This document shows, piece after piece, positions 7,253-34,451 of a DNA stretch of 64,000 nt; positions within the stretch are counted from its first letter, which is position 1; the number at the start of each line of letters is the position of its first letter. Below the pieces are notes generated by a model. That model ran no database searches, was not told the origin of the DNA, and saw nothing but the letters and a program-made list of their open reading frames with translations. The DNA comes from Bacteroidota bacterium. Lineage in GTDB: Bacteria > Bacteroidota > Bacteroidia > Bacteroidales > JAHJDW01. The position numbers were made by a program, and so were the translations under genes. The stretch lies in the NCBI GenBank assembly GCA_037139195.1, contig JBAXGW010000006.1:9232-73231 (forward strand), written 5' to 3'.

Positions 7253-7459
7253 AATCTTATAGTCGAAATATGCTAATGCAGTATTTGCTTAGTGTTTTAT
7301 CTTAATTTATCTCCTAATCTTGTTTCTTTATTTTAGTCCTTTTGATTCAAATTAAAAATATTTTTGATGTATTGTGATTTCATAGAAATAAATTATGAAT
7401 TTGAATTATTTTAACTTATATTAAGTAAATTATACGATAAAATGCGTTAGATAATATAT

Positions 7460-7467
7460 TATCTTTG
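7460..7467 (+). promoter_or_regulatory. Bacteroidota sigma-A -7 element
   Basis: TATCTTTG matches TAnnTTTG, ~80 bp upstream of ATG 7547. Confidence 0.5.
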
Positions 7468-7546
7468 TATTATGGTATAATAGTTTTTCAGCACACCACA
7501 TTTTTTGATTAAATATACCTGTTTCATTTTTTTTGAGATTTTTTTT

Positions 7547-16500: not shown

Positions 16501-18112
16501 TGCCTCCACTGGTTCTAGTAAAACATTTAAAATCAACAGCGATATTTCTTTGTATAATTTAACCGTTAATTCAACAAATACACCTGCTACACAGTTGTCA
16601 AAGAATCTATCATTAGGAAATAATTTAACTAATGCAGGAGCGGTTACGGTTTCAACTTATACGCTAAATGTTGCAAATAATTATTCTGGAGCAGGAACGC
16701 TTACTGTCTCAACTGGAATTATAAATGTAGATGGCGGATTTGATGCTACTGGAGGAGCTATTACTGCTACTGATGCAGCTGCAATCAACTTAGCAGGAAC
16801 AACTATTACAAGTTTGGGTACTTATGCATATTCAACTAGTACAGTAACTTTGGATGGTGCCAGTCAGTCATTTCCAGCTGCAACAGTATATAATTTAACC
16901 AGTTCAGGTTCAGGAACTAAAACACTTGGTGGAGCTGTTAATGTTAGAAATACACTTAATTTTGCTGCAGATAGTAAAGTTGCAACTGGTGCAAACACTT
17001 TAACTATTGGTGTTTCGGGTAGCTCAAATGGCAGTATCACTGGACAGAGTTCAGCTCGATACATTATAGCCTATGATAATTCGGGTACTATTGGTTATTT
17101 GAAAAGGTTTGTTACATCTAATTCTACTTATTTATATCCTATTGGAGATGCTTCACACTATACTCCACTTACTTTTACTCTTAACAGTAGTGCTGGTTTA
17201 TCTAGTGCAGATTTAACTGTATACACTAAAGCAGAGAAAGTTACAGGAATGAATGTATCAATTACAAATTATATTGATAGGTTTTGGCGCTATACTCAAT
17301 CAGGTATGACAACCCCAAACTATGATTTAACATTAGTTTATGATGATGCCGATATTCATTCTGGAACTACTGAGACAACTTTGCTCCCTATAAAAAAGAG
17401 CGGAAGTGTATGGTATGTTCCAACTTCTTCTACACTTTTAACTGGAGTTACTAAAGAGGGAAATACCACAGGCACGGATTATAATACAAATACCTTAAAA
17501 TGGAATGGACTTTCAACTTTCAGCGATGCTGGTGGTGCAGGCGATCAAAGTGTTATATTGCCTATTACACTATTGTCTTTTAATGCTAATTGCAATGAAT
17601 ACACTGCTGAATTAGATTGGAAAACGGCATCTGAAACGAACAATAATTTTTTCACAGTTGAACGTAGTTACGATATGCAGTTATGGGATATAGTTGGTAC
17701 GGTTAATTCTCAAGGAAATTCAAGCACTGTTCAATCGTATCAACTTTCGGATAATACAGTAGATTTTAATAATCCTACCATATTTTATCGTTTAAAACAA
17801 ACTGATTTCGATGGACAGTTTGAATTTTTCAATCCAATAGCTTTAAATTGCAATGATAAAGAATCATTTGAAATAATCTCAGTTGAAAAAGAGGGCTCAA
17901 ATATTACAATTAACTACAAAGGAATTATTGATGAAAGTATCAGTATAATGCTTTACACTGTTGCAGGTCAGAAAATATTTGATAAAAATATTATCTCGAA
18001 AAAAGGCACAAATAAATATTATATAAGAGATATTGATTTAAAACCTGGCGTTTACATGTTGATGTTGGAAACTACAGATAAGGTTTTATCAAAAAAGATT
18101 GTCTTAAAATAA
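7547..18112 (+). CDS. Giant (~3520 aa) T9SS-secreted surface protein, paralog of the upstream gene
   Basis: ATG at 7547 gives a signal peptide (MKKHILYSILLIVLLLFYSKINA), preferred over the TTG at 7505. Contains GGAV/GGAI beta-helix repeats, choice-of-anchor-Q-like D..R...DIGCYE motifs, LPITLLSF and a CTD. Confidence 0.85.
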   Translation: MKKHILYSILLIVLLLFYSKINAANYYITTTGSDAATGLVGFPKATLASVFSTYNLAAGDIINIAAGTYTEKDITIGTDDEGFTILGAGIGSTIFDSDQTGRWLIFNNANNDNITVQGITVKDYKSSGAGGGAVYMLSGTNGNAFTSIRFENCDTPAGYDGGAVYLDGNTIAFTGCTFTGCDAPNSGVSGGYGGAIYMSNTAAVTITISKCIFSSNSSRYGSAIGAYTGSMVLTMTITNSLFYKNNSTSNGTIYVESPRWSAVDIINTTIAYNTSTGNAGYISYATYAQAMSTLTNVLGYQNTGYDYYNMGIEPTIPLNNCYYETVSSFFTSTSCVVGGTPSFTDNSTDNYTLLTGSSCKNTGTASGAPSDDLLSATRDATPDIGCYEYIPTTYYSKNGVAPNLITSWNSNRDGTSGSAPTNFTTGEIFVVQGTASGYGGAHTMTTSATWTVSGTGSKVVIEGGGTLQADHLITLAAATTFQMDASATYIHNHTTAAAPTFAGTESFNSAAVIEVKNCQTTAGEVLTWSAACTGGFPSINWNITAGNNTAYLWSATSTSTITINGYLTITKTGTSGSVALASNKDLQVLNVSGNFSVLAGTFYLQSTATSVTGTMSVTGNISVSSGATFDISPAGTGTMNLNVGGNFTAAASSFKSTSIAATLVFNKSGTQTWSAPDNYNIATATINSGSTVQLLSDFRLSKTGADFVVSNGATLVFGTGSIDQTNSFRVKVNPGGAGTETFTVAAGGTLKITSPDGIVESQTTGNVLSGSGSASYYSWNQGAYYHYIGDAAQTTGTALPTTLTATGGLVINNTQAINSTNTGVTLSQATTVSTGTVILTAGILTTGSTPLLTITNTSTSAISNGSASAYVNGPIKWTMASAAGGTGGTYIFPTGKGGNYYPLTIAATTNTSQAPTVEAFSSDCYGTPPSTHHLSMTEYWKVIYSAGAMTAGTVKIQRPSALGGLNEVLTCATSNGSYATLNGSTSGTSITSTTVGTVTGLTKYYVMGSTSCPSYSGTITVGPTGTFPDLTQAIINLTSCGYTGNIILSLQSNYTSASETFPITFGSGLGSGAAKTITVQPGAAQATSISGSNSGGSIIVIDNANYITIEGRQLSGDGVTSYLTVSNTAAAAASNRAILIQNNASNNTIKYSTVKADNSSTTAPTAGVLFMGVGASGNNTISINNCTLTYATASTACLIVSNNTTGTNTSCTISTNTIKDFTNYGIWGNTGVSAFTISTNQIYQSAAAYSTSTVGTYLVYLNSGTSHDINGNYLGGAGSNCSSADYFTVNANGNIYGVYFGSITGAGTNYIRNNTIKYLKSASTSAACAAAGIYVNNPTSATLYITKNTIAYINTSSSSTSSVHYSVGIVSVGTCSSLSLYVNKNTVRDIENGMGGSSSAYLYGIDFGTATSTTVSYFYNNYINLDYGANSCRLYGIKASAASSVFNNTIYVRSTGASNYDNYCLQIGGTVNNTIKNNIFINPSSTAGTTTFAATIYVNGTGGTLTSTNNYFQYTGTSSTCVNKNGTAKDYATWDSETEANGQNNTDVTLNSIGKSSPVSGRTQNLGADLRAATPAVSEDIIDFSRSDATPSIGCYEHNCTTSYSDAINGGPYYIGTTGTWTSLTAALFDLKLCMTGATTLELQSSYTDASETFPIDFSNLPTDAVITLTIRPKSDATGLVISETNATAIIDYNNVDYVTIDGRPGGAGITSQLTIENSNTGAPVVRFINDATNNKLKYCTVSGSYSTGSTILFSTTTQTSGNDANTISNNTIQKYSGQNHKYAIYSAGTAAKTNDGNIITDNKIVDFKTSGVAVSSESDAWTISGNSFYQTGSQTPSEDFYVININAGSGYSVTNNFIGGQAITCGGSAMTIATSVYEFYGITFGASCSGGSTNVVSANTISNIAFTTTTTAATSFIALNLNGSSNFTVGSNSNANIIGANSGTGSISITDNGSGANGMYMIYMNSSGSNNISYNTIGSISLAGSNIASLACLVLINAGTNTITYNNIGNSTTDNITLLDDNRLTGIYVLDCASATQTITNNTIQGLTQTAGAGTDKELVGIEYNDYNTDFNINNNTITNFNSTSTDVYGTQGIVVSTSTSPTTATVNSNVISNLNNTSSAGIPHVEGIKIGAVGVTVSKNKISGLTSTRLTCYLIGIEASHVVGTASNYINNYIAISNGANTCDVYIYGIKFSGGDFKAYYNTINISGTETGGIYSEAALIYSSAGGSVDARNNIFLNTRSGGTGSHFAVEVPSLSGGAAITADYNFISATTVAQTGKWGATVKTYAETNTLLSATHTTTGSITVNSDASLSSTDLSTVGTGANLSAISGCTDDINGTVGNRSVANGGVGVKGCYESAQTFIWDGSSSSDWKTAANWTSNSVPTSSNGAIIPTSASYTNAPIIDEADAVCANLELQGTAILTMQSGKLTVSGTLIIASTSELQFDGGELEGSGKFDWDGLVDLNSGTLDINAEIELSATMTEEVSGGTIECAGEWDGASDDGGFTPSGGTITMDGAASSNIGLHSSANFYNLTIDRSGQTLTQTTGLNVLGNLTITNGTLDASASNYGLNVAGNWSNAGTYTSQSGTVTFNGAVAQTVTTGGSGVGKRFYNLTINNSYGTPDNTNDVDADAIYVSNTLTVTDGQFQPATASYFKDITIDAAGILKPDASATMYVSGNWTNSAGGTFTANSGTVEFNGTSTIITGGSGTSELFYNFILNGTSATLSTNALNVNYDLTLTAGEFNSANRTVYVGHNWVNNATYTSGTSTVQFFRSLNSVVSGSSTTSFYELQVDKGSDLTYSVDISVPCNITYNAVYTNGKIVYNNASISVIDKINPTSDVAATAGFHLINGVYDARHATWLFNNEGYVRISGGTAYFATSADKGFKNDVATSVYIQDGGTVYIAGKFDGIAGSATMSAGTMVVNQSGVNEASYGTFDASTNLNLNISGGTIILESPNANAGGYDINIVAGGTKTITGGTFQIGNASTGSSKTFKINSDISLYNLTVNSTNTPATQLSKNLSLGNNLTNAGAVTVSTYTLNVANNYSGAGTLTVSTGIINVDGGFDATGGAITATDAAAINLAGTTITSLGTYAYSTSTVTLDGASQSFPAATVYNLTSSGSGTKTLGGAVNVRNTLNFAADSKVATGANTLTIGVSGSSNGSITGQSSARYIIAYDNSGTIGYLKRFVTSNSTYLYPIGDASHYTPLTFTLNSSAGLSSADLTVYTKAEKVTGMNVSITNYIDRFWRYTQSGMTTPNYDLTLVYDDADIHSGTTETTLLPIKKSGSVWYVPTSSTLLTGVTKEGNTTGTDYNTNTLKWNGLSTFSDAGGAGDQSVILPITLLSFNANCNEYTAELDWKTASETNNNFFTVERSYDMQLWDIVGTVNSQGNSSTVQSYQLSDNTVDFNNPTIFYRLKQTDFDGQFEFFNPIALNCNDKESFEIISVEKEGSNITINYKGIIDESISIMLYTVAGQKIFDKNIISKKGTNKYYIRDIDLKPGVYMLMLETTDKVLSKKIVLK

Positions 18113-24693: not shown

Positions 24694-25596
24694 TTATTTA
24701 TAAAACTTCAATGTGTTTTTAAGTTCTTCTTTTATTTCCAATATAAGTGCTGTGGGTTCTACTACTTGCATACTAGTTCCATAACTAAGTAATTCTTTTA
24801 TAAAATCAAAAGTGATACAAATTTTTAATTTTATTCTGAGTTCTTTTTCATTGTCAATTAGTATTTCCTGACTTTCATGTAGTGGCATTGTCTTTATATA
24901 TTTTCCTTGGTATGGCTGAAATGAAAGAACTATATCCAGTGGTTTTTCATCATTTGGACTTATAATTCCAAAGCAGTTTTTAAAATGATTTTCTACGCTA
25001 AAGCCTTCAGGATAAATAAAATGTTCACGAGTTGCGTGGAATTCGCTGAATCTTCGGTCTAATGCAAATGTTTTTATTGCATTGTCTTTTGTGTCTTGTA
25101 CCACAACATACCAGCGATTTCTAAATTCTTTTAGTGCAAGTGGATTTGCCTTGCGCTGTTCGGGTTTGCTGCCCCAAAATTTGTGATAAACAAAATCGAT
25201 TTGAAAATTATTTTGAATAGCATGGATTATTCCATTTAAATTGTTGGTTGCTTGCGGACTGCGTTTTTCGAAATGCAAATATTTTGAAATTCCATCGGTG
25301 ATATTTAGCGCATTAAAAATTTCAAATGATTCTAACATTCTGCTTTTCACTTCATCGTGTAATTCTTCAACAATTTTGTACACTTGCTGTGATGAATCAT
25401 AATCGATAACTATATGATAATGTGTTGCAATTTCTAGCTTGTCGCGCTGAAATGTTCGCAACGAAATACGCAAATTTCTTTCTTGCAATTCTGATTCACG
25501 ATCAAGGAAATCGCATATTTCTCCAAAAGTTGATGGTTTTCGTCTTAATTTATTGATAATTAAGTTTTGACGGATGTTTGATTCTAGCTTTGACAT
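24694..25596 (-). CDS. WYL-domain transcriptional regulator (HTH-WYL-WCX)
   Basis: N-terminal HTH (ISLRTFQRD), WYL core (PLALKEFRNRWYVV..IKTFALDR), WCX-like C-terminus (LLSYGTSMQVVEP). Confidence 0.92.
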   Translation of the reverse strand: MSKLESNIRQNLIINKLRRKPSTFGEICDFLDRESELQERNLRISLRTFQRDKLEIATHYHIVIDYDSSQQVYKIVEELHDEVKSRMLESFEIFNALNITDGISKYLHFEKRSPQATNNLNGIIHAIQNNFQIDFVYHKFWGSKPEQRKANPLALKEFRNRWYVVVQDTKDNAIKTFALDRRFSEFHATREHFIYPEGFSVENHFKNCFGIISPNDEKPLDIVLSFQPYQGKYIKTMPLHESQEILIDNEKELRIKLKICITFDFIKELLSYGTSMQVVEPTALILEIKEELKNTLKFYK

Positions 25597-25617
25597 AATT
25601 ATTTGTATTTGCTAAAG

Positions 25618-25652
25618 CAAAGATAGATATTATTAACGCCAATATATGACGT
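25618..25652 (-). promoter_or_regulatory. Putative WYL box plus -7 element (copy 1, WYL gene)
   Basis: Minus strand: ACGTCA TATAT TGGCGT -N10- TATCTTTG. Confidence 0.7.
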
Positions 25653-25696
25653 TGATAAAATGTTTTATTCAAATATTTATTTTTCAAAATATATCG

Positions 25697-25704
25697 TATA
25701 TTTG
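25697..25704 (+). promoter_or_regulatory. -7 element of the MNT-HEPN operon
   Basis: TATATTTG 25 bp upstream of ATG 25730. Confidence 0.55.
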
Positions 25705-25729
25705 GGATAATTATTAATGTAAAGTTTTA

Positions 25730-26053
25730 ATGTCAAAACCTATGATAACCAAGGAGATAATTAAAAGCTTGTTGCTAAAGGAATTTCCTAAATTGGAAGC
25801 TGATTTTAAAGTTAAAAGAATCGGGTTATTTGGTTCGTATTCAACAAATCAGGCTAATGAAGAAAGTGACATTGATTTGATAATTGAATTTAACGAACCA
25901 ATAGGACTTAAATTCATTAACCTTTGTGATTATTTAGAGCAATTATTCGATAAAAAAGTAGATGTATTAACTCCAGAGGGTTTAAAAAGTATTCGAGTTA
26001 AGTCGGTGATTGATAATATTATAAATACAGTTGAGTATGTTGAAGCAGCGTGA
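25730..26053 (+). CDS. Minimal nucleotidyltransferase antitoxin (MntA-like)
   Basis: GS-x10-DxD motif (FGSYSTNQANEESDID) and KKVDV. Confidence 0.9.
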   Translation: MSKPMITKEIIKSLLLKEFPKLEADFKVKRIGLFGSYSTNQANEESDIDLIIEFNEPIGLKFINLCDYLEQLFDKKVDVLTPEGLKSIRVKSVIDNIINTVEYVEAA

Positions 26054-26366
26054 TGATATAAGGATACTCGATATTGAAGAATGTATACGAAGAATTGAAT
26101 TATTTGTTCTTGACCTGGATTATGATAACTTTATGTATGACATTAAAACCCAAGATGCTGTTGTTCGGAATTTAGAAATTATAGGCGAGGCTGTAAAAAG
26201 TTTAACACCCGAATTTACTGAAAAACATAAACACATTTCTTGGTCAGAAATTGGAAGACTAAGAGATAAATTAATTCATCATTATTCGGGTATAAACTAT
26301 GATATCGTTTGGGCTATAATTCAAAAAGACATACCCCAATTAAAGAGTGATATTTCTTTGATTTGA
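26037..26366 (+). CDS. HEPN/DUF86 RNase toxin (HepT-like)
   Basis: DAVVRNLEIIGEA and Rx4HxY (RDKLIHHY). ATG 26037 overlaps the MNT gene. Confidence 0.9.
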   Translation: MLKQRDDIRILDIEECIRRIELFVLDLDYDNFMYDIKTQDAVVRNLEIIGEAVKSLTPEFTEKHKHISWSEIGRLRDKLIHHYSGINYDIVWAIIQKDIPQLKSDISLI

Positions 26367-26374
26367 TGTTTAAA

Positions 26375-26851
26375 TTATTTCTGTTTTTCTAAATGCATCA
26401 AATAAAGTTTAGCACATGCCATTGCATCGCTTAAAGCATCGTGATGATTTAATTGAATTTTATGTTTTCGGCATAATGTTGCCAAATCCGCTCCAAATAT
26501 TTTATAAGTACAAGCTTGCACATATTCAGGATGTTCCAATCTGTAAAAATCTATAGTTTGCTTCAAGCAATTAAAATCAAAAGCTCCATTGTGTGCAACA
26601 ACTGTTCTGCCTTGAATTAAGTGTTTTATTTCTTCCCAAACCTTTGGAAATGTAGGCGAATTATATGTATGGCTTGAATCAATACCATGAATTTCGGTAT
26701 TTTTATAAAAGTAGAAATTATTGGGTGGACAAACTAATTTGTTTACTGTTTCAACTATAACGCCATTTTCTACTCGTACAATACCAACCTGACAAATACT
26801 CCAACGTTTGCCTTGTACCGTTTCAAAATCTAGTGCTGTGAATGTGTTCAT
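26375..26851 (-). CDS. DEDDh 3'-5' exonuclease (DnaQ-like)
   Basis: ALDFET, AHNGAFD and HHDALSDA Exo I/II/III motifs. Confidence 0.9.
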   Translation of the reverse strand: MNTFTALDFETVQGKRWSICQVGIVRVENGVIVETVNKLVCPPNNFYFYKNTEIHGIDSSHTYNSPTFPKVWEEIKHLIQGRTVVAHNGAFDFNCLKQTIDFYRLEHPEYVQACTYKIFGADLATLCRKHKIQLNHHDALSDAMACAKLYLMHLEKQK

Positions 26852-26883
26852 GGGTAAAGTTTAGTTCTGTAAAAGTAAAGAAT

Positions 26884-27384
26884 TTATGATTTAAACTCCA
26901 CTATTCTTTGAAAATCAATTTTAAAATCCCACCAAATTTCATCTATGTCAATAATCTGTTGCCATGTTAAATCGGTGTGTTCGCATAAACAATGCATAGT
27001 GTAAGTCATTTTAATGTATTTTAACTCAGGATGATTATGCAATAAATTCCAATCATCATAAGGAATGTCGGTCTTATCATCAAAATATTCTTCCACACCC
27101 AGCATTTCAAAAGAACAAATAGAATCGCCTTCTTCAACGTTCGTGTCTATGCTTGAAAAACACGAAATAATTACTTCGTACATCAAATCATCATGACTAT
27201 CAATAAAATCTTTATTTCGTTCTTTAAATGCTTCCCAAAAGCTTACTATTTCGGCATCTTTTTCAATAAATAGTTTGCTTATTTTCTCAATTTTAGCAAC
27301 AGCTTCAGGCGTAAATACAAACGATTTATCGGTTTTATATTTAGCAATTCTCTTATCAAAATATTTTTGTTGTCTTTCATTCAT
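26884..27384 (-). CDS. Hypothetical acidic protein
   Basis: 166-aa ORF co-oriented with its neighbours; no recognised motif. Confidence 0.65.
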   Translation of the reverse strand: MNERQQKYFDKRIAKYKTDKSFVFTPEAVAKIEKISKLFIEKDAEIVSFWEAFKERNKDFIDSHDDLMYEVIISCFSSIDTNVEEGDSICSFEMLGVEEYFDDKTDIPYDDWNLLHNHPELKYIKMTYTMHCLCEHTDLTWQQIIDIDEIWWDFKIDFQRIVEFKS

Positions 27385-27398
27385 AATATGAAATTTGA

Positions 27399-27425
27399 AT
27401 AGGCAGAAATTGAATCTCTGCCTAT
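27399..27425 (-). terminator. Hairpin downstream of the small Zn-finger gene
   Basis: 9-bp stem ATAGGCAGA-N9-TCTGCCTAT with a weak U-tract, so termination may be partial. Confidence 0.55.
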
Positions 27426-27431
27426 GTTAAT

Positions 27432-27683
27432 TTAAAGTGCTGGTGAATGTTTTCCTTTTCCTGCTCCATCTGGGTGACGAGGACAAGAGCCTGCTGTAAG
27501 TAAACTTATAGATGTAGATTGTTGCCCACAATATTTACAGCTGTATTTGTCTTTTTCGCTTCCTTCGTAAAGTTTGTGTTTACCTTTACCAGCGCCATTT
27601 GGATGACGAGGACAACTGCCAGCAGTTAGCAATGAAACACTTGATGATTTTTGTCCGCAATACTCACAATAATAATTTGCCAT
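27432..27683 (-). CDS. Small tandem Cys/His (Zn-finger-like) protein
   Basis: Two near-identical units Y.C.YCGQ.S.S.SLLTAGSCPRHP.GAGKGKH. Confidence 0.8.
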   Translation of the reverse strand: MANYYCEYCGQKSSSVSLLTAGSCPRHPNGAGKGKHKLYEGSEKDKYSCKYCGQQSTSISLLTAGSCPRHPDGAGKGKHSPAL

Positions 27684-27723
27684 AATTTGAATTGTTTTTT
27701 AATGATAAATAATTTTAACAATG

Positions 27724-27758
27724 CAAATCTATGAACCTGATACGCCAAAGAATGACGT
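27724..27758 (-). promoter_or_regulatory. Putative WYL box plus -7 element (copy 2)
   Basis: Minus strand: ACGTCA TTCTT TGGCGT -N10- TAGATTTG. Confidence 0.7.
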
Positions 27759-27765
27759 TTGAATT

Positions 27766-28137
27766 TTAATTTCTACTTTTAATAAAAGATTTTAATAATC
27801 CTTTGATATTTTCTGCCCCAATTGGATTTGCCGAATGAACTGCAAATTCAGGTAGTACTTTATTATTATCCAAGCAATATTCTACTAGCCATTTAGCACA
27901 ATCATACCCTGTTTTTTCTGATGTGCAATCTGTTGAATCGTAATCTCCCAAATCGTGGTCGAAGGAAATTAAATCTGGCAAGCCATTTTGAGTAATCCAA
28001 ATTGTGAAATCATTGTATGAACGGACTATATGCCAGTGTTCTTGATAATTTACAATGCTTATTTTAAGCAAACAACTACAAGTGTGGTTAAATACATCAA
28101 TTGGATTGCGAATATCATCAAGGAATAGTCGATTCAT
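27766..28137 (-). CDS. Cyclic-phosphate-processing receiver domain protein
   Basis: LFLDDIR.P, ISFDHDLG, TGYDCAKWL and VHSANPIG motifs. Confidence 0.8.
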   Translation of the reverse strand: MNRLFLDDIRNPIDVFNHTCSCLLKISIVNYQEHWHIVRSYNDFTIWITQNGLPDLISFDHDLGDYDSTDCTSEKTGYDCAKWLVEYCLDNNKVLPEFAVHSANPIGAENIKGLLKSFIKSRN

Positions 28138-28142
28138 AATGT

Positions 28143-29027
28143 TTAGTTAAGTAATATTTCAGAAATTCTCCTGTTTTCACGTTCATTAATAAAATGATAT
28201 GCAAATCTAAAAACTTCAGTATAGCAATTATACGCATTTATTTTGGGAATAATCACATCTTCAAAACCTTCTTCATTTCGTAAAAGTCCAACAGGATTAT
28301 TTAAAGCATTAATTTGGAATTCATTAAGTGTTAAATCTAATTTATCGCTTTCGCTACTTAATAGATTAACTCCAAACTTTTTTATGGATTGAAACAAGGT
28401 TTTGCGTTCATCTGTATTTGGTTTTAGCATAAGATTATCAATGCATTTTTTATAGGAAACCTGTTCATTTTCCATTTTATTAATAAATTCAAGTTGTTTG
28501 AAAATAGTTTCTTCAACTAAATCCATTCTTTCAGTTAATAATCTGGAATTTAATTCAATTGTATTATTGAAATGTTTTGTTATAATCTTGAAATCATTGT
28601 TGCCAACGCCAGCCATCAATCCATTTGAACAAACTTGTCGGAATAATCCAATATTCATTAATAAGGGCGAAGCTCCATTTGAACTACTAGATAGAACTAG
28701 CATTTTTTGATAAACAGAATTGTTAATTTCGAATTTGTCGGCAAAAAGCTTTAATTCTTGAACTCCACTCTGAATGCGAAGACTGAAATCAATTGGATTG
28801 ATATGATTTTCCACTTTTGGTAATATTTCTCTAACAATATTACCAAAGTCGAAAACGCCATATTTGTGAGAACATCTGGCTTGTGAAATTAATTCATCAG
28901 CATAAAAAGTATTTACTTTTCCGTCCCTTTTAAAAATTTCAAGCGGTTTTACTAATGTGTCAATTTCTGTTTGATTATAATTTTCTTTTTGTAAACAAAT
29001 TCCAATATGTTTCCTTTTAGTTTTCAT
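28143..29027 (-). CDS. DUF932-family protein
   Basis: SSNG...IGLFRQVCSNGL (G..R.VC.NG) followed by the conserved KH. Confidence 0.7.
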   Translation of the reverse strand: MKTKRKHIGICLQKENYNQTEIDTLVKPLEIFKRDGKVNTFYADELISQARCSHKYGVFDFGNIVREILPKVENHINPIDFSLRIQSGVQELKLFADKFEINNSVYQKMLVLSSSSNGASPLLMNIGLFRQVCSNGLMAGVGNNDFKIITKHFNNTIELNSRLLTERMDLVEETIFKQLEFINKMENEQVSYKKCIDNLMLKPNTDERKTLFQSIKKFGVNLLSSESDKLDLTLNEFQINALNNPVGLLRNEEGFEDVIIPKINAYNCYTEVFRFAYHFINERENRRISEILLN

Positions 29028-29051
29028 AGTTTTATGTTTTATATCTTTCTA

Positions 29052-29086
29052 CAAAGGAAATGGAGAGGATAGTCAAAATATGTCGT
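29052..29086 (-). promoter_or_regulatory. Putative WYL box plus degenerate -7 element (copy 3)
   Basis: Minus strand: ACGACA TATTT TGACTA -N10- TTCCTTTG. Confidence 0.55.
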
Positions 29087-29089
29087 TTG

Positions 29090-29120
29090 AAAAAAAAATC
29101 CGATTGAGGTGAATCAATCG
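29090..29120 (-). terminator. Intrinsic terminator of the Mrr-like gene
   Basis: CGATTGA-N6-TCAATCG stem followed on the minus strand by GA and a long T run. Confidence 0.7.
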
Positions 29121-29167
29121 CTTTTTATAAGTTTCACTATTTGTATAAAATAAATAGATTTTGGCAT

Positions 29168-30142
29168 CTATTTCATTCCAATAAAACATTTTCCTATCTC
29201 TTTAAACAATTGTTTTAATTCATTTGCAAAAATAAATTTAACATTTTCGTCATGTTCAAGAAGTCTAATATTGTCATCTTTTTTCGCTTTTGTAATTATA
29301 ACTATTTTTTCTATTAGCCTAAGATTTTCGCTTTCCCAATAGTTATCGGCTTTGTTTATTTGAGTAATTACTTCTTGATTTACAAAACCTTCATAGTCTT
29401 TAACTTGAATGGCTATAGCATAGCTATAATTACTCAATATACTAGGTAGTTTAATCAAAATATCTGTTCCATGATTTTTTTCCTCTTTTCCACCAACTCT
29501 TTCAATTTGATAAAAGGGGAACATTTGTTTTAGTCCATAAACAAGAGCAAACTCCCATTCTTCTCGAGTAAACTGTTCCGTTAATTTATTGTAGAGTTTA
29601 TTTGCAAATTCTGCTTCATCAAAAACCTCATTAAATACGGTTCCAATAGAACTTTCTAACCTGCTGTTATAATCTTGTCTTTTTGACAGTTCTGATACTT
29701 GAGATTTAAGTATTTTTTCTACATCATCTGCATAATGGTTTATATTCCAAAATCTAGAAGGGTTTTTCAGTGTGGAACGCAAGTTTCCGGTGACATTTTC
29801 ATTATTACGCGTAAACTTTTTCAAGTATTTAGCTGGGAAAATATGCCCATAATCACCCAGTGAAGGCTCAATTTCAAAAAGATAGCCTTTGTTCCAATCA
29901 TCAGTTGCTTCAACCATTGCAACTTCTCCCCAACTCGGAAGCTGTGGAATTAATAAAATATCACCTTTTTTAACTTTGTTGAACATCGGTCTATTTCGCC
30001 CAGCTCCTTCATCTAGCTTAAAATCTCTTAAATCTTGAGCTTTATCCCAACCCCAACCTTGTCTTAACCGACCTTCAATTAATTCTGTAGTAAAAAAATT
30101 AATTTGACTTGTATCAACTCTAAAACACCAATAATTTTTCAT
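29168..30142 (-). CDS. Mrr-like PD-(D/E)XK restriction endonuclease with a putative N-terminal PUA/EVE-like domain
   Basis: C-terminal E...GG....HGTDILI...IAIQVK (D..QxK) motif; N-terminal LRQGWGW...KGDILLIP. Confidence 0.65.
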   Translation of the reverse strand: MKNYWCFRVDTSQINFFTTELIEGRLRQGWGWDKAQDLRDFKLDEGAGRNRPMFNKVKKGDILLIPQLPSWGEVAMVEATDDWNKGYLFEIEPSLGDYGHIFPAKYLKKFTRNNENVTGNLRSTLKNPSRFWNINHYADDVEKILKSQVSELSKRQDYNSRLESSIGTVFNEVFDEAEFANKLYNKLTEQFTREEWEFALVYGLKQMFPFYQIERVGGKEEKNHGTDILIKLPSILSNYSYAIAIQVKDYEGFVNQEVITQINKADNYWESENLRLIEKIVIITKAKKDDNIRLLEHDENVKFIFANELKQLFKEIGKCFIGMK

Positions 30143-30311
30143 GTTTTAATTTATTTTTTTATTTGAATTTAAAATAGAATACTCCATGTTAAAAATAATC
30201 AACCGAAAGAATTAGACCAGGTTTTCTACTAGTATTTACTTTAAACATGGTTATTCCAAGCTTGACTTTATTATCCTTTAATGTTGATGAAATTACTACT
30301 CTGAAAAGCCC

Positions 30312-30319
30312 CAAACGTA
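30312..30319 (-). promoter_or_regulatory. -7 element upstream of the Mrr-like gene
   Basis: Minus strand TACGTTTG, which implies a ~160-nt leader. Confidence 0.4.
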
Positions 30320-30354
30320 TCGTAGTAATATATAAATAATGCTATTGATTGTCT

Positions 30355-31050
30355 TTATAATTCATTATTTTTAGAATATAGAATTTTTATTTCTTCTAAA
30401 TTTAGAGCTTTTACATTAAAATGAGGATTTGAACATTTGGAACTCAACTCCCATTTCTTGTTTTCTGAAAAATTAAACCACCAATTAAGTATTTTTAAAT
30501 CTTCTTTACTGAATAAGTTTAATTCAAATAAGGTTTTAATATCATCAAATGTATAATTATAATGATGTACTCCCTTTAAATTTTCATAGAATATTTTTTC
30601 ATGGGTTCTCCATGGTAACAACTTCCACCAATTCAAGTAAATTTCATATTCGGCAAGTAAAATAATATTATTAAGAAATTGATCAAAAATAAACTCTCGG
30701 TAGACTAAACTAATAATATTTTCAGGAACTGGTTCGTTGTTTTTTAATAAATAAGGGCTGTAATTTCCTGTTAAATTTCGTCTTTCAGTCTTAGTTAAAA
30801 GCTCCCACCATATAATGGGCTCATATAACTTATCATTAATATCTAAAATCGGCAAATTATAATAGAAAAACTTTATTTCATCAAAACTAATATTTCTATA
30901 ATTACCCCAAGCTGTATATGTTTCATCTTCAGGACGTGTAAGGAACAATTTCTCGCCACTATATAATTCCACATCCCGACCACCCGAAATTATAAAATAT
31001 ATCGTATAGTAGTCTGAAGACTTATTAGTTATTTTTGCATTTAATCTCAT
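30355..31050 (-). CDS. Hypothetical protein with internal WW..L repeats
   Basis: 231-aa ORF containing IIWWELL, LNWWKLL and LNWWFNF units. Confidence 0.6.
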   Translation of the reverse strand: MRLNAKITNKSSDYYTIYFIISGGRDVELYSGEKLFLTRPEDETYTAWGNYRNISFDEIKFFYYNLPILDINDKLYEPIIWWELLTKTERRNLTGNYSPYLLKNNEPVPENIISLVYREFIFDQFLNNIILLAEYEIYLNWWKLLPWRTHEKIFYENLKGVHHYNYTFDDIKTLFELNLFSKEDLKILNWWFNFSENKKWELSSKCSNPHFNVKALNLEEIKILYSKNNEL

Positions 31051-31127
31051 ACATTAATTTTTTTCAAATATACTCAATTATTTCTAATTCAATCTTTTCC
31101 ATTCTACATGATACAATAAGTTCAAAC

Positions 31128-32312
31128 CTATATCATCAAAGCTCTTTTTGCAAATTCTTCAATTAACTTGAATCTGGAAATAAATTCATTTGCTAATTTG
31201 TTATGAATAATTTTCACAAACACATTATTGTCCCATGTTTTAGGAAGAAAGTCATACCAGTGAACTGGATAATAAGGGGTTGACTTAAAATTATTGCTGC
31301 CAAATTCAATTCTGGCAAACTCGATTAATTTAGCTCGGACATCATCTGATTGCATTGTTAAATCTAACCATCTAATTCCATTGCAAATATCATTTAGGTT
31401 GTTTGATTGTGGTGCGTAGGAAAAACATAAATTATTTTCTTTTAAAAAGTGTGAAGTCAAAGTCAAATTAGAATGAGCTGTAAAATTTAAACTATCATCA
31501 ATTAAATCAATACTTTGATTAGATGCTTGAATTTGCAATTGGTTTTTGAAATTACTAATTAATAGCAATTTAGCAGCGTAGATATTATTTGAAATCAATT
31601 CTGCTGATTTGAAATTTATTTCGCTATTCACAATGTTTTCTGCAATTTCATTTTTTAATTCTTCACTCATGGTTTGTCCTGTTAAATATTTAATCAAGTT
31701 TATATATTGTGTTATTGACTCCCTCAAAATTGGGTGCATTGCGGCTTCTTTCCTGCAAAGTTCTAGCCATTCTATAATATCTGTTTTATATGAAATGCAT
31801 TTTAATAATTCATCTGGAATACTTTGGTCTTTTGTAGCTTTAGTATAGTCATTTGCTTCGTTTCCATATAAAGTCAGATACAAAATAGGTGCATTTTGGT
31901 CGAAATTATGATAACGAATCAATTGATTCTCTTGGTCGCCAGCATAAATTTTATTTTCAATAATAATATGCTTCCCATTTTTGTCTTTTAGTAATATATC
32001 AATTCTTCCGCCTTCATCTTCGGTTTTATAAGCGATGTGATGCTCTACCTTTATATTAGCATTTTCGGCAATAAAATCAGTGATTTTAAGATGGTTGATA
32101 AAGATTTTTAGAAATTCATCTTTCTGTCCGTGGCTTCCTTGTGGATTTAATAATTCTGCAAGGAAAGCGGAATGTGTTCTTACTTCATCAGAAGTCAATT
32201 TAAGAATTTTGAAAATATTAAAGTTTTCTCCTGATAATTCCGCAACTTTCTCATATTGCTTTCGAATAGCCGAAACTTGATTTAAGAGGTTGGTTATATT
32301 GTTTATTTCCAT
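31128..32312 (-). CDS. PD-(D/E)XK nuclease family protein (PDDEXK_4-like)
   Basis: NFNIF..L....DE..HSAFLAELLNP.GSHG, GRIDILL, IIIENKIYAGDQENQL.RY. ATG 32312 preferred. Confidence 0.85.
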   Translation of the reverse strand: MEINNITNLLNQVSAIRKQYEKVAELSGENFNIFKILKLTSDEVRTHSAFLAELLNPQGSHGQKDEFLKIFINHLKITDFIAENANIKVEHHIAYKTEDEGGRIDILLKDKNGKHIIIENKIYAGDQENQLIRYHNFDQNAPILYLTLYGNEANDYTKATKDQSIPDELLKCISYKTDIIEWLELCRKEAAMHPILRESITQYINLIKYLTGQTMSEELKNEIAENIVNSEINFKSAELISNNIYAAKLLLISNFKNQLQIQASNQSIDLIDDSLNFTAHSNLTLTSHFLKENNLCFSYAPQSNNLNDICNGIRWLDLTMQSDDVRAKLIEFARIEFGSNNFKSTPYYPVHWYDFLPKTWDNNVFVKIIHNKLANEFISRFKLIEEFAKRALMI

Positions 32313-32353
32313 GATTTTTATTTCAAATATATACAAAATTTAGCTCAACTATA

Positions 32354-32938
32354 TTATTTTTTAATTTTTATCAAATCAGCATATAAATTTTCAAATTCAT
32401 ATTCTTCTGAAAGTTTGTATTTGTAATAAATTTCTTTTATTTTTTCAGAGCTTAATTGAAATTCCTTTTGTTTAATGAGTATCTCTATATTTATCATTGT
32501 TTTCTCTAATATTTTACTGAATATTTCTTCTTTGTAATACAATGATAATATTAATTGTTTCCATGCTACGTCTTTGTAATATTTGAAAATATTTGTAGCA
32601 ACAACTGATTTTTTGTGGCATATTATTTCTTTTGCAAATGCTGCAAATTCAGCAAAGTTGCTGTAAAACATTAAAATCCATAATGCTTTATCATTGGATG
32701 CGTTTAATTTTTCATTTATTGAATCAATTGTTCCACTTATATTGAAAAACAGTACGCAAAATTGATTGAACAAATTTGTGCTTGATATATGTTCTTCAAT
32801 ATACGTTAAATCGATATCTACCTGAAGTATTGATCTTTGAAGTTTTGTTAGTTCTTCAAGGAATTGGATGCTTAAATTACTCCTTAAGTGAAATTCTAAT
32901 AAGAGGAAAGATTTTATTTCGGCAAAATGGTCTGTCAT
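32354..32938 (-). CDS. Hypothetical helical protein
   Basis: ATG 32938 lies just downstream of promoter/box copy 4; no recognised motif. Confidence 0.6.
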   Translation of the reverse strand: MTDHFAEIKSFLLLEFHLRSNLSIQFLEELTKLQRSILQVDIDLTYIEEHISSTNLFNQFCVLFFNISGTIDSINEKLNASNDKALWILMFYSNFAEFAAFAKEIICHKKSVVATNIFKYYKDVAWKQLILSLYYKEEIFSKILEKTMINIEILIKQKEFQLSSEKIKEIYYKYKLSEEYEFENLYADLIKIKK

Positions 32939-32954
32939 ATTTATCAAGTTTTAG

Positions 32955-32989
32955 CAAAATAAATAAGTGCCAAAGCCAAAATATGACGT
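32955..32989 (-). promoter_or_regulatory. Putative WYL box plus degenerate -7 element (copy 4)
   Basis: Minus strand: ACGTCA TATTT TGGCTT -N10- TTATTTTG. Confidence 0.65.
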
Positions 32990-33031
32990 TAGTAAAATTT
33001 ATTCTGCAAACTAAAAAAAATCAGTACAAAA

Positions 33032-34129
33032 TTACCAATCCACTAATTTAAAAGGTTTGCAAACCTCATAAACTTCTTCAAAAATTTTTTCACTTACTTT
33101 CTTCGATAAACTAACTTCTTTGGCTACTGCAAAAATATCTTTTAAAGTGGGATTTCCTTGTCCCAAAATGGTTGATGAATGATTTGCATAAAAACCTTCA
33201 CTCGGAACTAAGTCATAAGCAGGTGACAATTTCCAAGAATTTTCTTTTAATATAAACGAAAAATTCTTTGCGTGGTCGTCTTTATTTCCCATCAACACAT
33301 TAAATATCATCTGCCTATACAATTTTTCAACTTCTTTTATATCTCTTGTTAATCCTAAAGTTGCTTTCAACATTTCAGAATAATCTAACGAAGGAAAACG
33401 ATGGCTGGCATATAAAAGTCCACTCATAGAATGCGTATGAATTCTCTTCGAACCATTTCTATCAAAACGCTTAACACCAAAATATTTTCCTTCAAACAAA
33501 CGTGTTTCTGGCATTTCAATGCCACACTTTTTGGCAATTTGTGAATATTCATATTCAATATTTCCTATATCAGCAGGGTCTTGAGACGATGCAAACTTAA
33601 TTATCCAAGGATTCCCATCTATTTCAATCATTACTTTTGGTCTGGCGCCGCCCGAAGAGCCATTTTTATTGAGTAATAATTCTAAAGAGCCCGAATAGTC
33701 ATCGTTTAAAATTAGTTTAACCTCCTTAGCTAGAAAATTTACATCAGTAATATCTGTAAAACTTGTTAATTTATTAATTGGCTTATACCACAATACTCCC
33801 ATGCCATTATCGCCAACAATACTAAGTCTATCTAATAATGTCAATGATGAAGGATTGAATTTTTGGCTCATTAAAAATCGGTCTAATAAAAGATTTCCCC
33901 AGCCATCGGGCAAACTGTCATTAAAAACACCAAACATGCCATCGAAAGGATCTCTTTTTGCAACAAAAGTTCCTGCTTTTAAAGGCAAATGAAAAGGTGA
34001 TAATGAAATGCCTTTTGCAAGATAATCAGCATTATATTCGAATAAACAGAGATTGTTGGAGCCTAGCGCCAAGCGTCCAACCTTTTGTTCGTCCCAATAA
34101 ACTTCAACTAAATCAGTGTGTTTAATCAT
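33032..34129 (-). CDS. hipA: HipA-family Ser/Thr kinase toxin
   Basis: N-terminal couple domain (DSLPDGWG), SSGGARPK, GNKDDHAKNFSF and LSPAYD. Confidence 0.92.
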   Translation of the reverse strand: MIKHTDLVEVYWDEQKVGRLALGSNNLCLFEYNADYLAKGISLSPFHLPLKAGTFVAKRDPFDGMFGVFNDSLPDGWGNLLLDRFLMSQKFNPSSLTLLDRLSIVGDNGMGVLWYKPINKLTSFTDITDVNFLAKEVKLILNDDYSGSLELLLNKNGSSGGARPKVMIEIDGNPWIIKFASSQDPADIGNIEYEYSQIAKKCGIEMPETRLFEGKYFGVKRFDRNGSKRIHTHSMSGLLYASHRFPSLDYSEMLKATLGLTRDIKEVEKLYRQMIFNVLMGNKDDHAKNFSFILKENSWKLSPAYDLVPSEGFYANHSSTILGQGNPTLKDIFAVAKEVSLSKKVSEKIFEEVYEVCKPFKLVDW

Positions 34130-34451
34130 TTTTCCGACCTCGCTTTCTTATTTTTTTACTCTTTAGAACCTTATCTATGCTTGAATTTATATTGTTTTGA
34201 AAAAGCAATTTGAATTCTTCAACTGCATTTAAAACGATAGCTAGCATAAGCAAATGTTTTAACGATATTTCTGCTTTGTCTTCAAAACGTTTTAAAGTTC
34301 CTAAGCTAACACCTGATTTTGAGGCTAAATCCTCACGGGTAAAATTAAGAAACAAACGCTTTTGTTTAAGATTTGCAGCAATTTTTCGCATTAAATCTAG
34401 TGGATTAAAATCGTCTAATTCAAAATTATTATTGGCTAATATATTATCCAT
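34122..34451 (-). CDS. XRE-family HTH antitoxin (HipB-like)
   Basis: TREDLASKSGVSLGTLKRFE..ISL; overlaps the hipA start. Confidence 0.85.
   Translation of the reverse strand: MDNILANNNFELDDFNPLDLMRKIAANLKQKRLFLNFTREDLASKSGVSLGTLKRFEDKAEISLKHLLMLAIVLNAVEEFKLLFQNNINSSIDKVLKSKKIRKRGRKND

Follow-up and report, generated by a model that had tools for sequence, protein, structure and literature searches.

The window analyzed here, a stretch of 64,000 nucleotides from a Bacteroidota bacterium, contains an island in which a WYL-WCX regulator of 300 amino acids (24694–25596, minus strand) is encoded next to three transcription units on the same strand. Its WYL domain (PF13280, 2.9e-12, residues 119–181) is followed by a WCX domain (PF25583, 3.6e-8, residues 219–295), which is the domain order of class A wHTH-WYL-WCX transcription factors. 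No HTH family was matched by Pfam, and a search of the PDB with the N-terminal domain profile of the regulator family yielded no significant sequence hit to a wHTH of solved structure. An N-terminal wHTH is probable, as indicated by the RTFQRD recognition-helix motif, in which R47, R51, and D52 were invariant in all 40 orthologues; this motif was aligned with that of PafB only inside a non-significant HMMER stretch. The HTH-WYL-WCX protein of the preliminary description was thus recovered by Pfam as regards WYL and WCX, while its HTH is predicted from RTFQRD. The first arginine of the R-L-D-R motif in the WYL domain was replaced by A, G, or C in 40/40 orthologues.

Reading of the minus strand and a pattern search confirmed four units at which a 17-bp box beginning with ACGnCA-N5-TGnC is followed, after exactly 10 bp (N10), by a -7 element of the form T[A/T]nnTTTG. 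Site 1 (25618–25652) consists of the box ACGTCATATATTGGCGT (25636–25652) and the -7 element TATCTTTG and lies at the promoter of the WYL gene itself, as had been proposed. The others, all on the same strand, are site 2 (27724–27758; box ACGTCATTCTTTGGCGT, 27742–27758; -7 element TAGATTTG), site 3 (29052–29086; box ACGACATATTTTGACTA, 29070–29086; -7 element TTCCTTTG), and site 4 (32955–32989; box ACGTCATATTTTGGCTT, 32973–32989; -7 element TTATTTTG). Site 3 has a weak right arm and a TT-type -7 element, being one of the two among the four that start with TT rather than TA, as originally noted. From the -7 element to the first ATG opening an ORF of at least 40 amino acids there are 21, 40, 24, and 16 nt at sites 1 to 4, respectively. 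The term palindrome used in the preliminary description was generous: a dyad is present, and its arms pair at 5/6, 5/6, 3/6, and 4/6 positions in sites 1 to 4. The spacers of the four sites were indeed unrelated in sequence.

The unit behind site 2 (26375–27683, minus strand) comprises genes for a Zn-ribbon protein of 83 amino acids (27432–27683), an unknown protein of 166 amino acids (26884–27384), and a DEDDh/RNase_T exonuclease of 158 amino acids (26375–26851); judging from strand and spacing, they probably form one operon. Homologues of the Zn-ribbon protein are also encoded downstream of boxes in three other loci (L008, L042, and L043). Two genes lie behind site 3 (27766–29027, minus strand; phrog_1479), encoding a DUF932 protein of 294 amino acids (28143–29027, Pfam 4.5e-6) and a cREC_REC protein of 123 amino acids (27766–28137, Pfam 4.3e-25). 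Just upstream of this site, a terminator-like hairpin with a T run (29101–29120, minus strand) would terminate transcription from site 4. The unit behind site 4 (29168–32938, minus strand) includes four genes: an orphan ORF of 194 amino acids when counted from the first ATG downstream of the -7 element, or 197 amino acids in its TTG form (32354–32947), a PDDEXK_4 nuclease of 402 amino acids corresponding to the PADLOC candidate PDC-S26 (31128–32336), and unknown proteins of 231 (30355–31050) and 324 (29168–30142) amino acids. Since the PDDEXK_4 and 231-aa genes are each closely preceded by a box-less TATATTTG element (32324–32331 and 31065–31072, respectively), box control of the distal genes of this unit is only presumptive. 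A toxin-antitoxin pair of an MNT nucleotidyltransferase and HepT (25730–26366) is encoded inside the island on the plus strand; it has no box and is therefore outside the predicted regulon.

With exactly 10 bp between the proximal half-site and the TA of the -7 element, the box lies where a -33 element would be. This earlier suggestion was verified using 1,203 TAnnTTTG elements preceding long ORFs in the source genome. Upstream of them, TTG was enriched only at spacers 19 and 20 (7.3% and 7.4% versus about 2%–3% elsewhere), which coincide with box positions 5–8. The box's own TTG corresponds to spacer 14, where the genome-wide frequency of TTG was 2.2%, with no enrichment.

The source genome (4,478,958 bases, or 4.48 Mb, with 32% G+C) was scanned as a whole. 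The pattern ACGTCA-N5-TGGC has three genomic matches, all of them in the island, within 7.4 kb and on one strand; the relaxed pattern ACG[TA]CA-N5-TG[GA]C has five, of which four are in the island. A weight-matrix scan of the genome, as proposed in the preliminary description, was performed with a matrix of 35 columns built from 63 sites of other genomes, the window being excluded, which makes the test non-circular. The island sites took ranks 1–4, with site 2 scoring 31.8, site 1 30.4, site 4 27.8, and site 3 26.9 bits. Rank 5 was a site on another contig (26.3 bits), and rank 6 dropped to 14.6 bits; the maximum scores in three mononucleotide shuffles of the genome were 13.5, 21.1, and 18.1 bits. 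It is therefore extremely improbable that the four sites arose by chance or remain from a local duplication and lack a regulatory role. The DNA is AT-rich, and TAnnTTTG by itself occurs in the window at chance frequency (118 matches versus 117.9 expected), but such an origin is contradicted by the box counts, the matrix ranks, the unrelated spacers, the N10 spacing, and the conservation of the unit across Bacteroidota orders.

Co-occurrence of the box with WYL orthologues, another check suggested in the preliminary description, was assessed in 80 orthologue loci from several Bacteroidota orders (37%–56% identity to the regulator), a box being called with no fewer than 8 matches to the 10 specified positions and a -7 element at N10. 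The unit preceded the WYL orthologue or its upstream AAA ATPase gene in 44/80 loci. In 22 of the 80 it was found within 150 bp upstream of the WYL gene, and in another 22 at 150–3,500 bp on the same strand, where an AAA ATPase cluster (PF00004) is located. No box scoring at least 8 was found in 28/80 loci; some of these box-less loci are cut contigs, and some contain variant half-sites seen by eye. GmrSD is, together with AAA ATPase, a recurring neighbor of the WYL orthologues, and the cargo of related loci also includes DUF2779, NERD, and AbiEii. When a -7-like element was present 8–12 bp from a box, the spacing was N10 in 80 of 98 cases, the window and near-duplicate loci included; among 18 distinct perfect boxes, it was N10 in 15 and N9 in 2 (17/18 together). 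The 10 spacer columns hold only 0.08–0.25 bits each, so the distance is conserved and the spacer sequence is not. The consensus of 62 sites is [A/G]CG[A]CA-N5-TG[T/G]CGT.

The unit accompanies WYL orthologues through loci of otherwise differing gene content and across orders, which supports the proposed tie between the boxes and the local WYL-WCX protein. That they are read by some other factor, for example the HipB-like HTH protein encoded at 34122–34451, or by a broader range of factors, with the WYL gene only incidentally nearby, is improbable. This idea draws on a motif-first scan, in which a WYL-family gene was present within the locus in only 15 of the 80 loci listed, while 40 of these 80 belonged to Chryseobacterium or Epilithonimonas, have a distinct box centre, and, except for one locus (L126), were among the 65 without a WYL-family gene. 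Moreover, two genomes (G047 and G073) have an exact box-promoter match, and no WYL domain was found in them. However, all three Chryseobacterium or Epilithonimonas genomes tested contain a WYL orthologue elsewhere, 17 of the 31 exact matches listed for a sample of 151 genomes have a WYL-family gene on their contig at a distance of no more than 10 kb, and the motif is bound experimentally by the WYL proteins DriD and DdaA. In view of the 15/80 and 40/80 counts, the box may not be restricted to the local WYL family.

Among published relatives, the homodimeric activators DriD and DdaA, not mentioned in the preliminary description, come closest, and the site published for them is the motif of the island boxes. 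According to its published description, DriD of Caulobacter crescentus is a homodimeric wHTH-3HB-WYL-WCX activator triggered by ssDNA, with the experimentally proven site ATACGAC-N7-GTCGTAT and core CGAC-N7-GTCG (PMC13004042). This site includes ACGAC-N7-GTCGT, the same dyad as the island box. The described DriD sites overlap a missing -35 element at a constant distance from -10 (PMC13004042), as the island boxes do over -33 with the fixed N10. The 40-orthologue profile matched DriD in the PDB at about 1e-12 (individual chains, 2.6e-12 to 1e-11). The differences include the host sigma factor and promoter type, with a TAnnTTTG -7 element here, the absence of the first WYL arginine in the island regulator family, and the distribution of targets: the described DriD targets are dispersed DNA-damage promoters (didA, bapE, dnaG, and recJ), whereas nearly all sites of the source genome are in one island. 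DdaA of Moraxellaceae is reported to activate DNA-damage and anti-phage genes via the proven motif CGWCA-N5-TGWCG, with the first Arg of R-L-D-R changed to Ala and with self-regulation in basal lineages; its homologues outside Moraxellaceae were considered putative regulators of adjacent genes of unknown function (PMC12392091). The 62-site consensus agrees with the published motifs of both proteins, and the island family also shares with DdaA, as described, the replaced arginine and, as predicted from the box at the WYL promoter, self-regulation. The DdaA motif, by contrast, is reported to precede the start site by about 50 bp, and a mechanism of the PafBC type was considered unlikely for it (PMC12392091), while the island box directly abuts the -7 element.

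The spacing equivalent to that of PafBC, proposed from the island alone, was borne out: TGnCGT-N10-TA corresponds to the consensus tGTCgg(N10)tA(N3)T, in which R46 and R50 of PafB are described as reading the GTC triplet (PMC8635444). The proximal half-site and the core TA stand in the identical register in this actinobacterial sigma-adaptation system, as published; its two recognition-helix arginines have counterparts in the predicted recognition helix of the island protein, and both lack an upstream -35/-33 element. However, PafBC is a heterodimer or two-unit fusion acting at a non-palindromic site of a large repair regulon including recA. The island has a single 300-aa gene and a dyad site, the sole paralogue, encoded on another contig, is 34% identical and has no box in its upstream region, and only five genomic sites were found. 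SiwR of Mycobacterium smegmatis is described as a homodimeric WYL activator of adjacent genes with an imperfect palindrome between -35 and -10 (PMC10693628); by this description, it resembles the island regulator in its adjacent targets and in the palindrome between promoter elements and differs in its DinB-like cargo.

Taken together, our preferred reading, with a probability of about 0.6, is that of a self-regulating protein of the DriD/DdaA type, which activates a small group of conflict genes that are rich in nucleases and for the most part located nearby. The protein would bind as a dimer to the 17-bp dyad ACGnCA-N5-TGnCGT, each wHTH reading one CGnC/GnCG half-site via the invariant R47 and R51. 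In this arrangement, 10 bp separate the proximal half-site from the TA of the -7 element recognized by Bacteroidota sigma-A, and the box takes the place of -33. The WYL domain would sense a nucleic-acid cue, probably single-stranded DNA, upon which RNA polymerase would most likely be recruited from the box, much as with DriD, PafBC, and SiwR. As a result, the regulator gene, the three neighboring transcription units (about 10 genes), and one distal operon would be switched on.

The same protein and boxes could also act in the opposite sense, and we consider this possible, though clearly less likely than activation. A dimer over the -33 region would block RNA polymerase, as in CapW and BrxR, the WYL repressors of defense systems, until a nucleic-acid cue released it and de-repressed the island and its own gene. 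Both of these have a wHTH-WYL-WCX architecture next to variable defense cargo, and negative self-regulation combined with nuclease-rich, defense-like and possibly toxic cargo is their published habit; PDDEXK_4/PDC-S26 and the DEDDh exonuclease in the window, as well as the cargo of the related loci, fit it. Full TAnnTTTG -7 elements, present at 53/62 sites, would also suit strong promoters under a repressor. The missing -33 is weak evidence of the need for an activator, because TTG at ordinary promoters reaches only about 7% per spacer (19 and 20). Against repression, the published operators lie over -10 in CapW and downstream of -10 in BrxR, while at each of the four island sites 10 bp separate the end of the box from the -7 element downstream of it. 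The family profile matched PafBC at 2e-17 and PafB at 1.2e-11 but CapW at only 1.3e-4, 0.055, and 0.14 and BrxR at 2.6e-4 and 1.9e-3, which places it 7–11 orders of magnitude nearer DriD and PafB. DdaA and DriD, whose DNA motif the boxes share, are activators, and simple occlusion does not need spacing exact to 1 bp across unrelated genes.

The suggestion of a regulon responding to nucleic-acid damage or phage stood in part. Nucleases and defense-like genes abound in the cargo, while the regulon is small, mostly local, and not PafBC-like in DNA repair. In 77 of 78 Bacteroidota recA upstream regions no box was found, and the remaining one had a weak match; this is not a global DNA-repair regulon. 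In line with the preliminary description, our literature search found no account of such a system in Bacteroidota; the supplement of the DdaA paper may already include members of this phylum. Through the promoters of the island, with predicted sites for its own WYL regulator, a switch known to sense DNA damage and phage would be extended to Bacteroidota, whose promoters are unusual. One-mismatch matches were found in five other genomes, with two to three in each.

A more speculative and rather doubtful idea is that WYL regulators share one ancient geometry of RNA polymerase docking, with the GnC proximal half-site 10–11 bp from the core TA in both Actinobacteria (PafBC) and Bacteroidota despite the very different sigma-A and -33/-7 promoter of the latter. 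The orientation-specific box centre may in addition represent a relocated -33-like TTTG, 5 bp closer than normal, which sigma region 4 would read only with the WYL dimer bound. If true, such docking and reading would be a Bacteroidota form of sigma adaptation. In the 62-site set, position 7 of the box carries T at 41 sites, C at 16, and A at 2, and T at position 11 (52 sites) results in TTTG at positions 10–13.

The four units proposed in the preliminary description were located exactly at the positions claimed there, all on the minus strand, by minus-strand reading and pattern search: site 1, ACGTCATATATTGGCGT-N10-TATCTTTG, at 25652-25618; site 2, ACGTCATTCTTTGGCGT-N10-TAGATTTG, at 27758-27724; site 3, ACGACATATTTTGACTA-N10-TTCCTTTG, at 29086-29052; and site 4, ACGTCATATTTTGGCTT-N10-TTATTTTG, at 32989-32955. 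Each unit comprises a 17-bp box, a 10-bp spacer and a -7 element, followed by the first ORF-opening ATG after 21, 40, 24 and 16 nt (sites 1-4). The spacers have nothing in common, as had been stated, and a dyad is present, but the palindrome is imperfect, with an arm complementarity of 5/6, 5/6, 3/6 and 3-4/6 (sites 1-4). Since the pattern searched for in the window had been taken from the sites themselves, this search was circular and two independent tests were used. The motif ACGTCA-N5-TGGC had three matches in the whole assembly (4.48 Mb, 32% G+C), all within this 7.4-kb stretch and on one strand. For the genome scan suggested earlier, 63 sites of other genomes, with the window left out, were compiled into a 35-column weight matrix, under which sites 1-4 took genome ranks 1-4; the four window scores were 31.8, 30.4, 27.8 and 26.9 bits. 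The fifth rank, with 26.3 bits, was a box-N10-TATTTTTG unit outside the window (contig C53 of the source genome G000, 16680-16714, plus strand; locus L285:4681-4715), while the next score was 14.6 bits and the maxima for shuffled genomes under the same matrix were 13.5-21.1 bits. The source genome, a MAG of an uncultured freshwater bacterium, thus contains five sites. The C53 site probably belongs to the regulon as a distal member; the three ORFs downstream of it (276, 392 and 146 aa) had no Pfam match.

The four window sites lie within an island of about 10 kb (24694-34451), with an outer-membrane beta-barrel gene at one border and the genes of BatA and topoisomerase IV at the opposite one. 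In minus-strand order, it begins with a HipB-like HTH gene and HipA (33032-34451, minus strand), followed by the site 4 unit, in which an orphan ORF precedes the genes of a PDDEXK_4 nuclease (PADLOC candidate PDC-S26, 2.5e-102) and of two unknown proteins, 231 and 324 aa long. The terminator scan placed a terminator-like hairpin (29120-29101, minus strand) between this unit and site 3, which precedes DUF932 and cREC_REC genes; the sigma-70 promoter scan is not applicable to Bacteroidota, and only the terminator output was used. The site 2 unit encodes a Zn-ribbon protein, an unknown 166-aa protein and a DEDDh exonuclease, all on the minus strand, and site 1 precedes the gene of the 300-aa WYL-WCX regulator (24694-25596, minus strand). 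The HipB-like HTH/HipA module and the MNT/HepT pair (25730-26366, plus strand) are two toxin-antitoxin modules that flank or interrupt the island, and neither has a box. Because the PDDEXK_4 and 231-aa genes are closely preceded by TATATTTG elements lacking a box, we can only infer that box control extends beyond the first gene of each unit. Synteny with the sole genome of the same family (G026) was limited to the topoisomerase IV flank, so the island is presumed to be an insertion on the basis of its gene content alone. A 7-bp hairpin (AGGCAGA..TCTGCCT, 27401-27423, minus strand), found by eye and not called by the terminator scan, is located just past the stop codon of the Zn-ribbon gene, ahead of the 166-aa ORF.

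Scanning one genome per species for orthologues of the window WYL protein yielded 80 loci (37-56% identity), assigned by record title to Bacteroidales, Flavobacteriales, Sphingobacteriia, Cytophagales and other groups. Cultured carriers of an orthologue include Psychroflexus tropicus (L030), Kaistella jeonii (L076) and Plebeiibacterium sediminum (L039). The arrangement ACGnCA-N5-TGnCGT, 10 bp and TAnnTTTG is visible ahead of many of these orthologues. The co-occurrence of motif and regulator, which had been named as a check, was found: with a box call requiring a match at 8 or more of the 10 specified positions and a -7-like element at N10, a unit was present upstream on the same strand in 44 of the 80 loci, a lower bound since several box-less loci are cut contigs and others carry variant half-sites. 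The unit was no more than 150 bp away from the WYL start in 22 loci and 150-3500 bp upstream in 22 further ones; this more distant zone holds a cluster of 285-561-aa proteins, most sampled members of which are classic AAA ATPases. Boxes were found only elsewhere in the locus in 8/80 cases, and no box passed the 8/10 threshold in the remaining 28, some of which show by eye variant half-sites such as GGACA..TGTCC and TGTCA..TGACA.

The geometry of the unit is conserved. When box hits were tallied by the distance to a -7-like element lying 8-12 bp away, with the window and redundant loci counted in, the spacer was 10 bp in 80, 9 in 11, 11 in 3, 8 in 2 and 12 in 2. There were 18 distinct perfect boxes: 15 had the -7 element at N10, two at N9 and one had none; the remaining perfect hits lacking a -7 element represent the reverse strands of the same boxes. 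Across 62 non-redundant sites, each spacer column carries 0.08-0.25 bits and the box and -7 columns are near-invariant, meaning that the distance is conserved and the spacer sequence is not. The sites also show A-rich columns about 5-7 nt beyond the TTTG of the -7 element, where transcription would be expected to start. In the source genome, the native -33 TTG is most frequent at a distance of 19-20 bp ahead of TAnnTTTG; this location coincides with box positions 5-8, in agreement with the proposal that the box covers the -33 location. The box has its own TTG at spacer 14, where no genomic enrichment was seen in the source genome. The 5-bp centre of the box is asymmetric: T or C occupies position 7 in 57/62 sites (A in 2), and T occupies position 11 in 52/62, producing an oriented TTTG at box positions 10-13, 14 bp from the -7 element and 5 bp nearer than the normal -33. 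All four window sites share the asymmetry of this set, which was drawn from loci L003-L082. An ECF-type alternative-sigma reading of ACGTCA was dropped by reasoning, because a -7 element follows at fixed spacing. In three loci (L015:1425-1441, L039:9891-9907, L020:1664-1680), one box has outward-facing -7 elements at N10 on both sides; one dimer site would serve two divergent promoters.

The regulator itself resembles known WYL activators. Residues R47, R51 and D52 of its putative recognition-helix motif RTFQRD are kept in 40/40 aligned orthologues, and the position of the first WYL arginine is A, G or C in all 40. The orthologue profile matched PafBC (2e-17), DriD chains (about 1e-12) and PafB (1.2e-11) in PDB, and the matches to the repressors CapW (1.3e-4 to 0.14) and BrxR (2.6e-4 to 1.9e-3) were much weaker; the profile of the N-terminal part (residues 1-115) gave only chance-level rows in PDB (E >= 0.24). 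The window protein has an extra arginine at residue 181 (LDRR) in the conserved LDR loop, present in 1/40 aligned orthologues. A second WYL paralogue (contig C12 of the source genome) has no box upstream.

The window box equals the motif of DdaA and DriD. DdaA, a homodimeric WYL activator of Moraxellaceae, is reported to recognize CGWCA-N5-TGWCG and, in the WYL pair of ssDNA-binding arginines, to have alanine instead of the first one, the position substituted here by A, G or C; its basal lineages are described as self-regulated, and its homologues in other groups seem to control genes of unknown function in their vicinity (PMC12392091). The DriD site is given as CGAC-N7-GTCG in the same paper (PMC12392091) and as ATACGAC(X)7GTCGTAT in another (PMC13004042). 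The claimed equivalence of geometry with PafBC is supported: the proximal half-site lies in the register of its consensus tGTCgg(N10)tA(N3)T, which functions without a -35 element and whose GTC triplet is read by R46 and R50 of PafB (PMC8635444). SiwR is a homodimeric activator of adjacent genes, with a palindrome between -35 and -10 (PMC10693628).

From these sequence comparisons, the local WYL protein is very likely (probability of about 0.9) to read the boxes and control its own gene and the neighbouring units. The best-supported sign is activation, which we hold with moderate confidence: ssDNA or a related cue would cause the WYL protein to recruit polymerase at box promoters. It is favoured because of the motif identity with activators, the profile proximity, the position upstream of the core element and the base-pair-exact spacing. 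In the case of DriD, DNA binding is stimulated by ssDNA; in that of CapW, ssDNA abolishes it. That the protein represses these promoters seems rather unlikely. Self-regulated control of defence cargo is the habit of CapW and BrxR, the -7 elements of box promoters are mostly consensus in the 62-site set, and ordinary promoters of the source genome show only weak conservation of the -33 element, all consistent with repression; however, the sites of CapW overlap -10 (PMC9122588) and the repeats of BrxR are downstream of it (PMC9122601), whereas the window box is located upstream of the core element.

Several scans addressed the reach of the regulon. Five other orthologue-bearing genomes had 2-3 one-mismatch matches each, mostly within the WYL locus itself. 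Since the background of the one-mismatch pattern is about 0.5-1 per genome (control columns), exact matches alone were used in a sample of 151 genomes of the order, 36 of which encode an orthologue at E <= 1e-30. Among the 31 exact box-promoter matches listed (47 more exist), 17 have a WYL-family gene no more than 10 kb away on the same contig, and many others are on small contigs; two genomes of the sample (G047, G073) had an exact match and no WYL domain found. In a motif-first scan of a species collection, 72 of the 80 loci listed belonged to Bacteroidota by title, and a WYL-family ORF was within the locus (<= 8 kb) in 15. Half of these listed loci (40/80; L085-L164) were from Chryseobacterium or Epilithonimonas, most with the centre ACGTCAAGTT[T/C]TG. 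Such sites, N10 from TAnnTTTG, precede genes for M15 peptidase (166 aa), T9SS-sorted, beta-helix and DUF6266 proteins and Dcm methylase, and a WYL orthologue was present, far from them, in all three Chryseobacterium/Epilithonimonas genomes checked; they may represent a dispersed regulon or another factor. Among the matches listed for the DriD consensus, a WYL-like ORF was found in 1/79 loci, no record was from Caulobacter, and most were chance matches.

A global DNA-damage regulon is ruled out by the recA upstream regions of 78 Bacteroidota, in which one weak box hit was found and the pattern was absent from 77, together with the mere five sites in the source genome. A perfect box with TAACTTTG located 81 nt upstream of recA in a Flavobacteriales MAG (L135:6095-6129, plus strand) stands alone. 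The suggested damage or anti-phage regulon is thus upheld in part: recA is not a general target, but the predicted cargo is variable, nuclease-rich and defence-island-like. The first genes behind boxes in other loci encode Zn-ribbon, PcfJ-like, NT5C, GmrSD, PDDEXK_4, DnaB_C-like and SpoU proteins. Among 102 non-WYL proteins of predicted box-driven operons of other genomes, obtained by crude operon extension with some read-through, the Pfam families found most often were AAA (20), GmrSD_N (7), DUF2779 (6), PDDEXK_4 (4), ClpS (4), NT5C (4) and RNase_T (3), and NERD, REase-ARP and AbiEii occurred once each. We class the system as a putative DriD/DdaA-type WYL regulator that would use the PafBC register on a Bacteroidota -7 promoter and whose predicted regulon of conflict genes is small and mostly local. 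A 2026 survey reports DriD-like WYL proteins beside Bacteroidota retron loci, without giving sites (PMC13712802). The preliminary description knew of no such case in Bacteroidota, and our full-text literature search on this phylum found no account of the DNA motif or promoter arrangement of a WYL regulator; the supplement of the DdaA paper may include Bacteroidota homologues.

The finding gives a defined, widely conserved Bacteroidota promoter module (17-bp box, 10 bp, TAnnTTTG) together with a candidate regulator for whose relatives the structures of polymerase complexes have been solved. To our knowledge, little is known about how transcription factors contact the divergent sigma-A polymerase of Bacteroidota. 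The module tags variable nuclease-rich cassettes (AAA ATPase, GmrSD, DUF2779, PDDEXK_4, DEDDh exonuclease, DUF932, cREC) as co-regulated, with phage or DNA damage as the probable inducers; searching Bacteroidota genomes for the box could reveal new defence or conflict genes.

NT5C-like 5'-nucleotidase genes occur in box-driven units of L024, L039, L056 and L063 (Saccharicrinis, Plebeiibacterium). Four ClpS-like adaptor genes were present among the operon proteins, and 90-aa ORFs beside NT5C in three such loci may be ClpS-like; the pairing of NT5C and ClpS is unusual for a defence-like island. The first 18 kb of the window (2-18112, plus strand) is filled by two giant ORFs of 2416 aa (5' end open) and 3535 aa.
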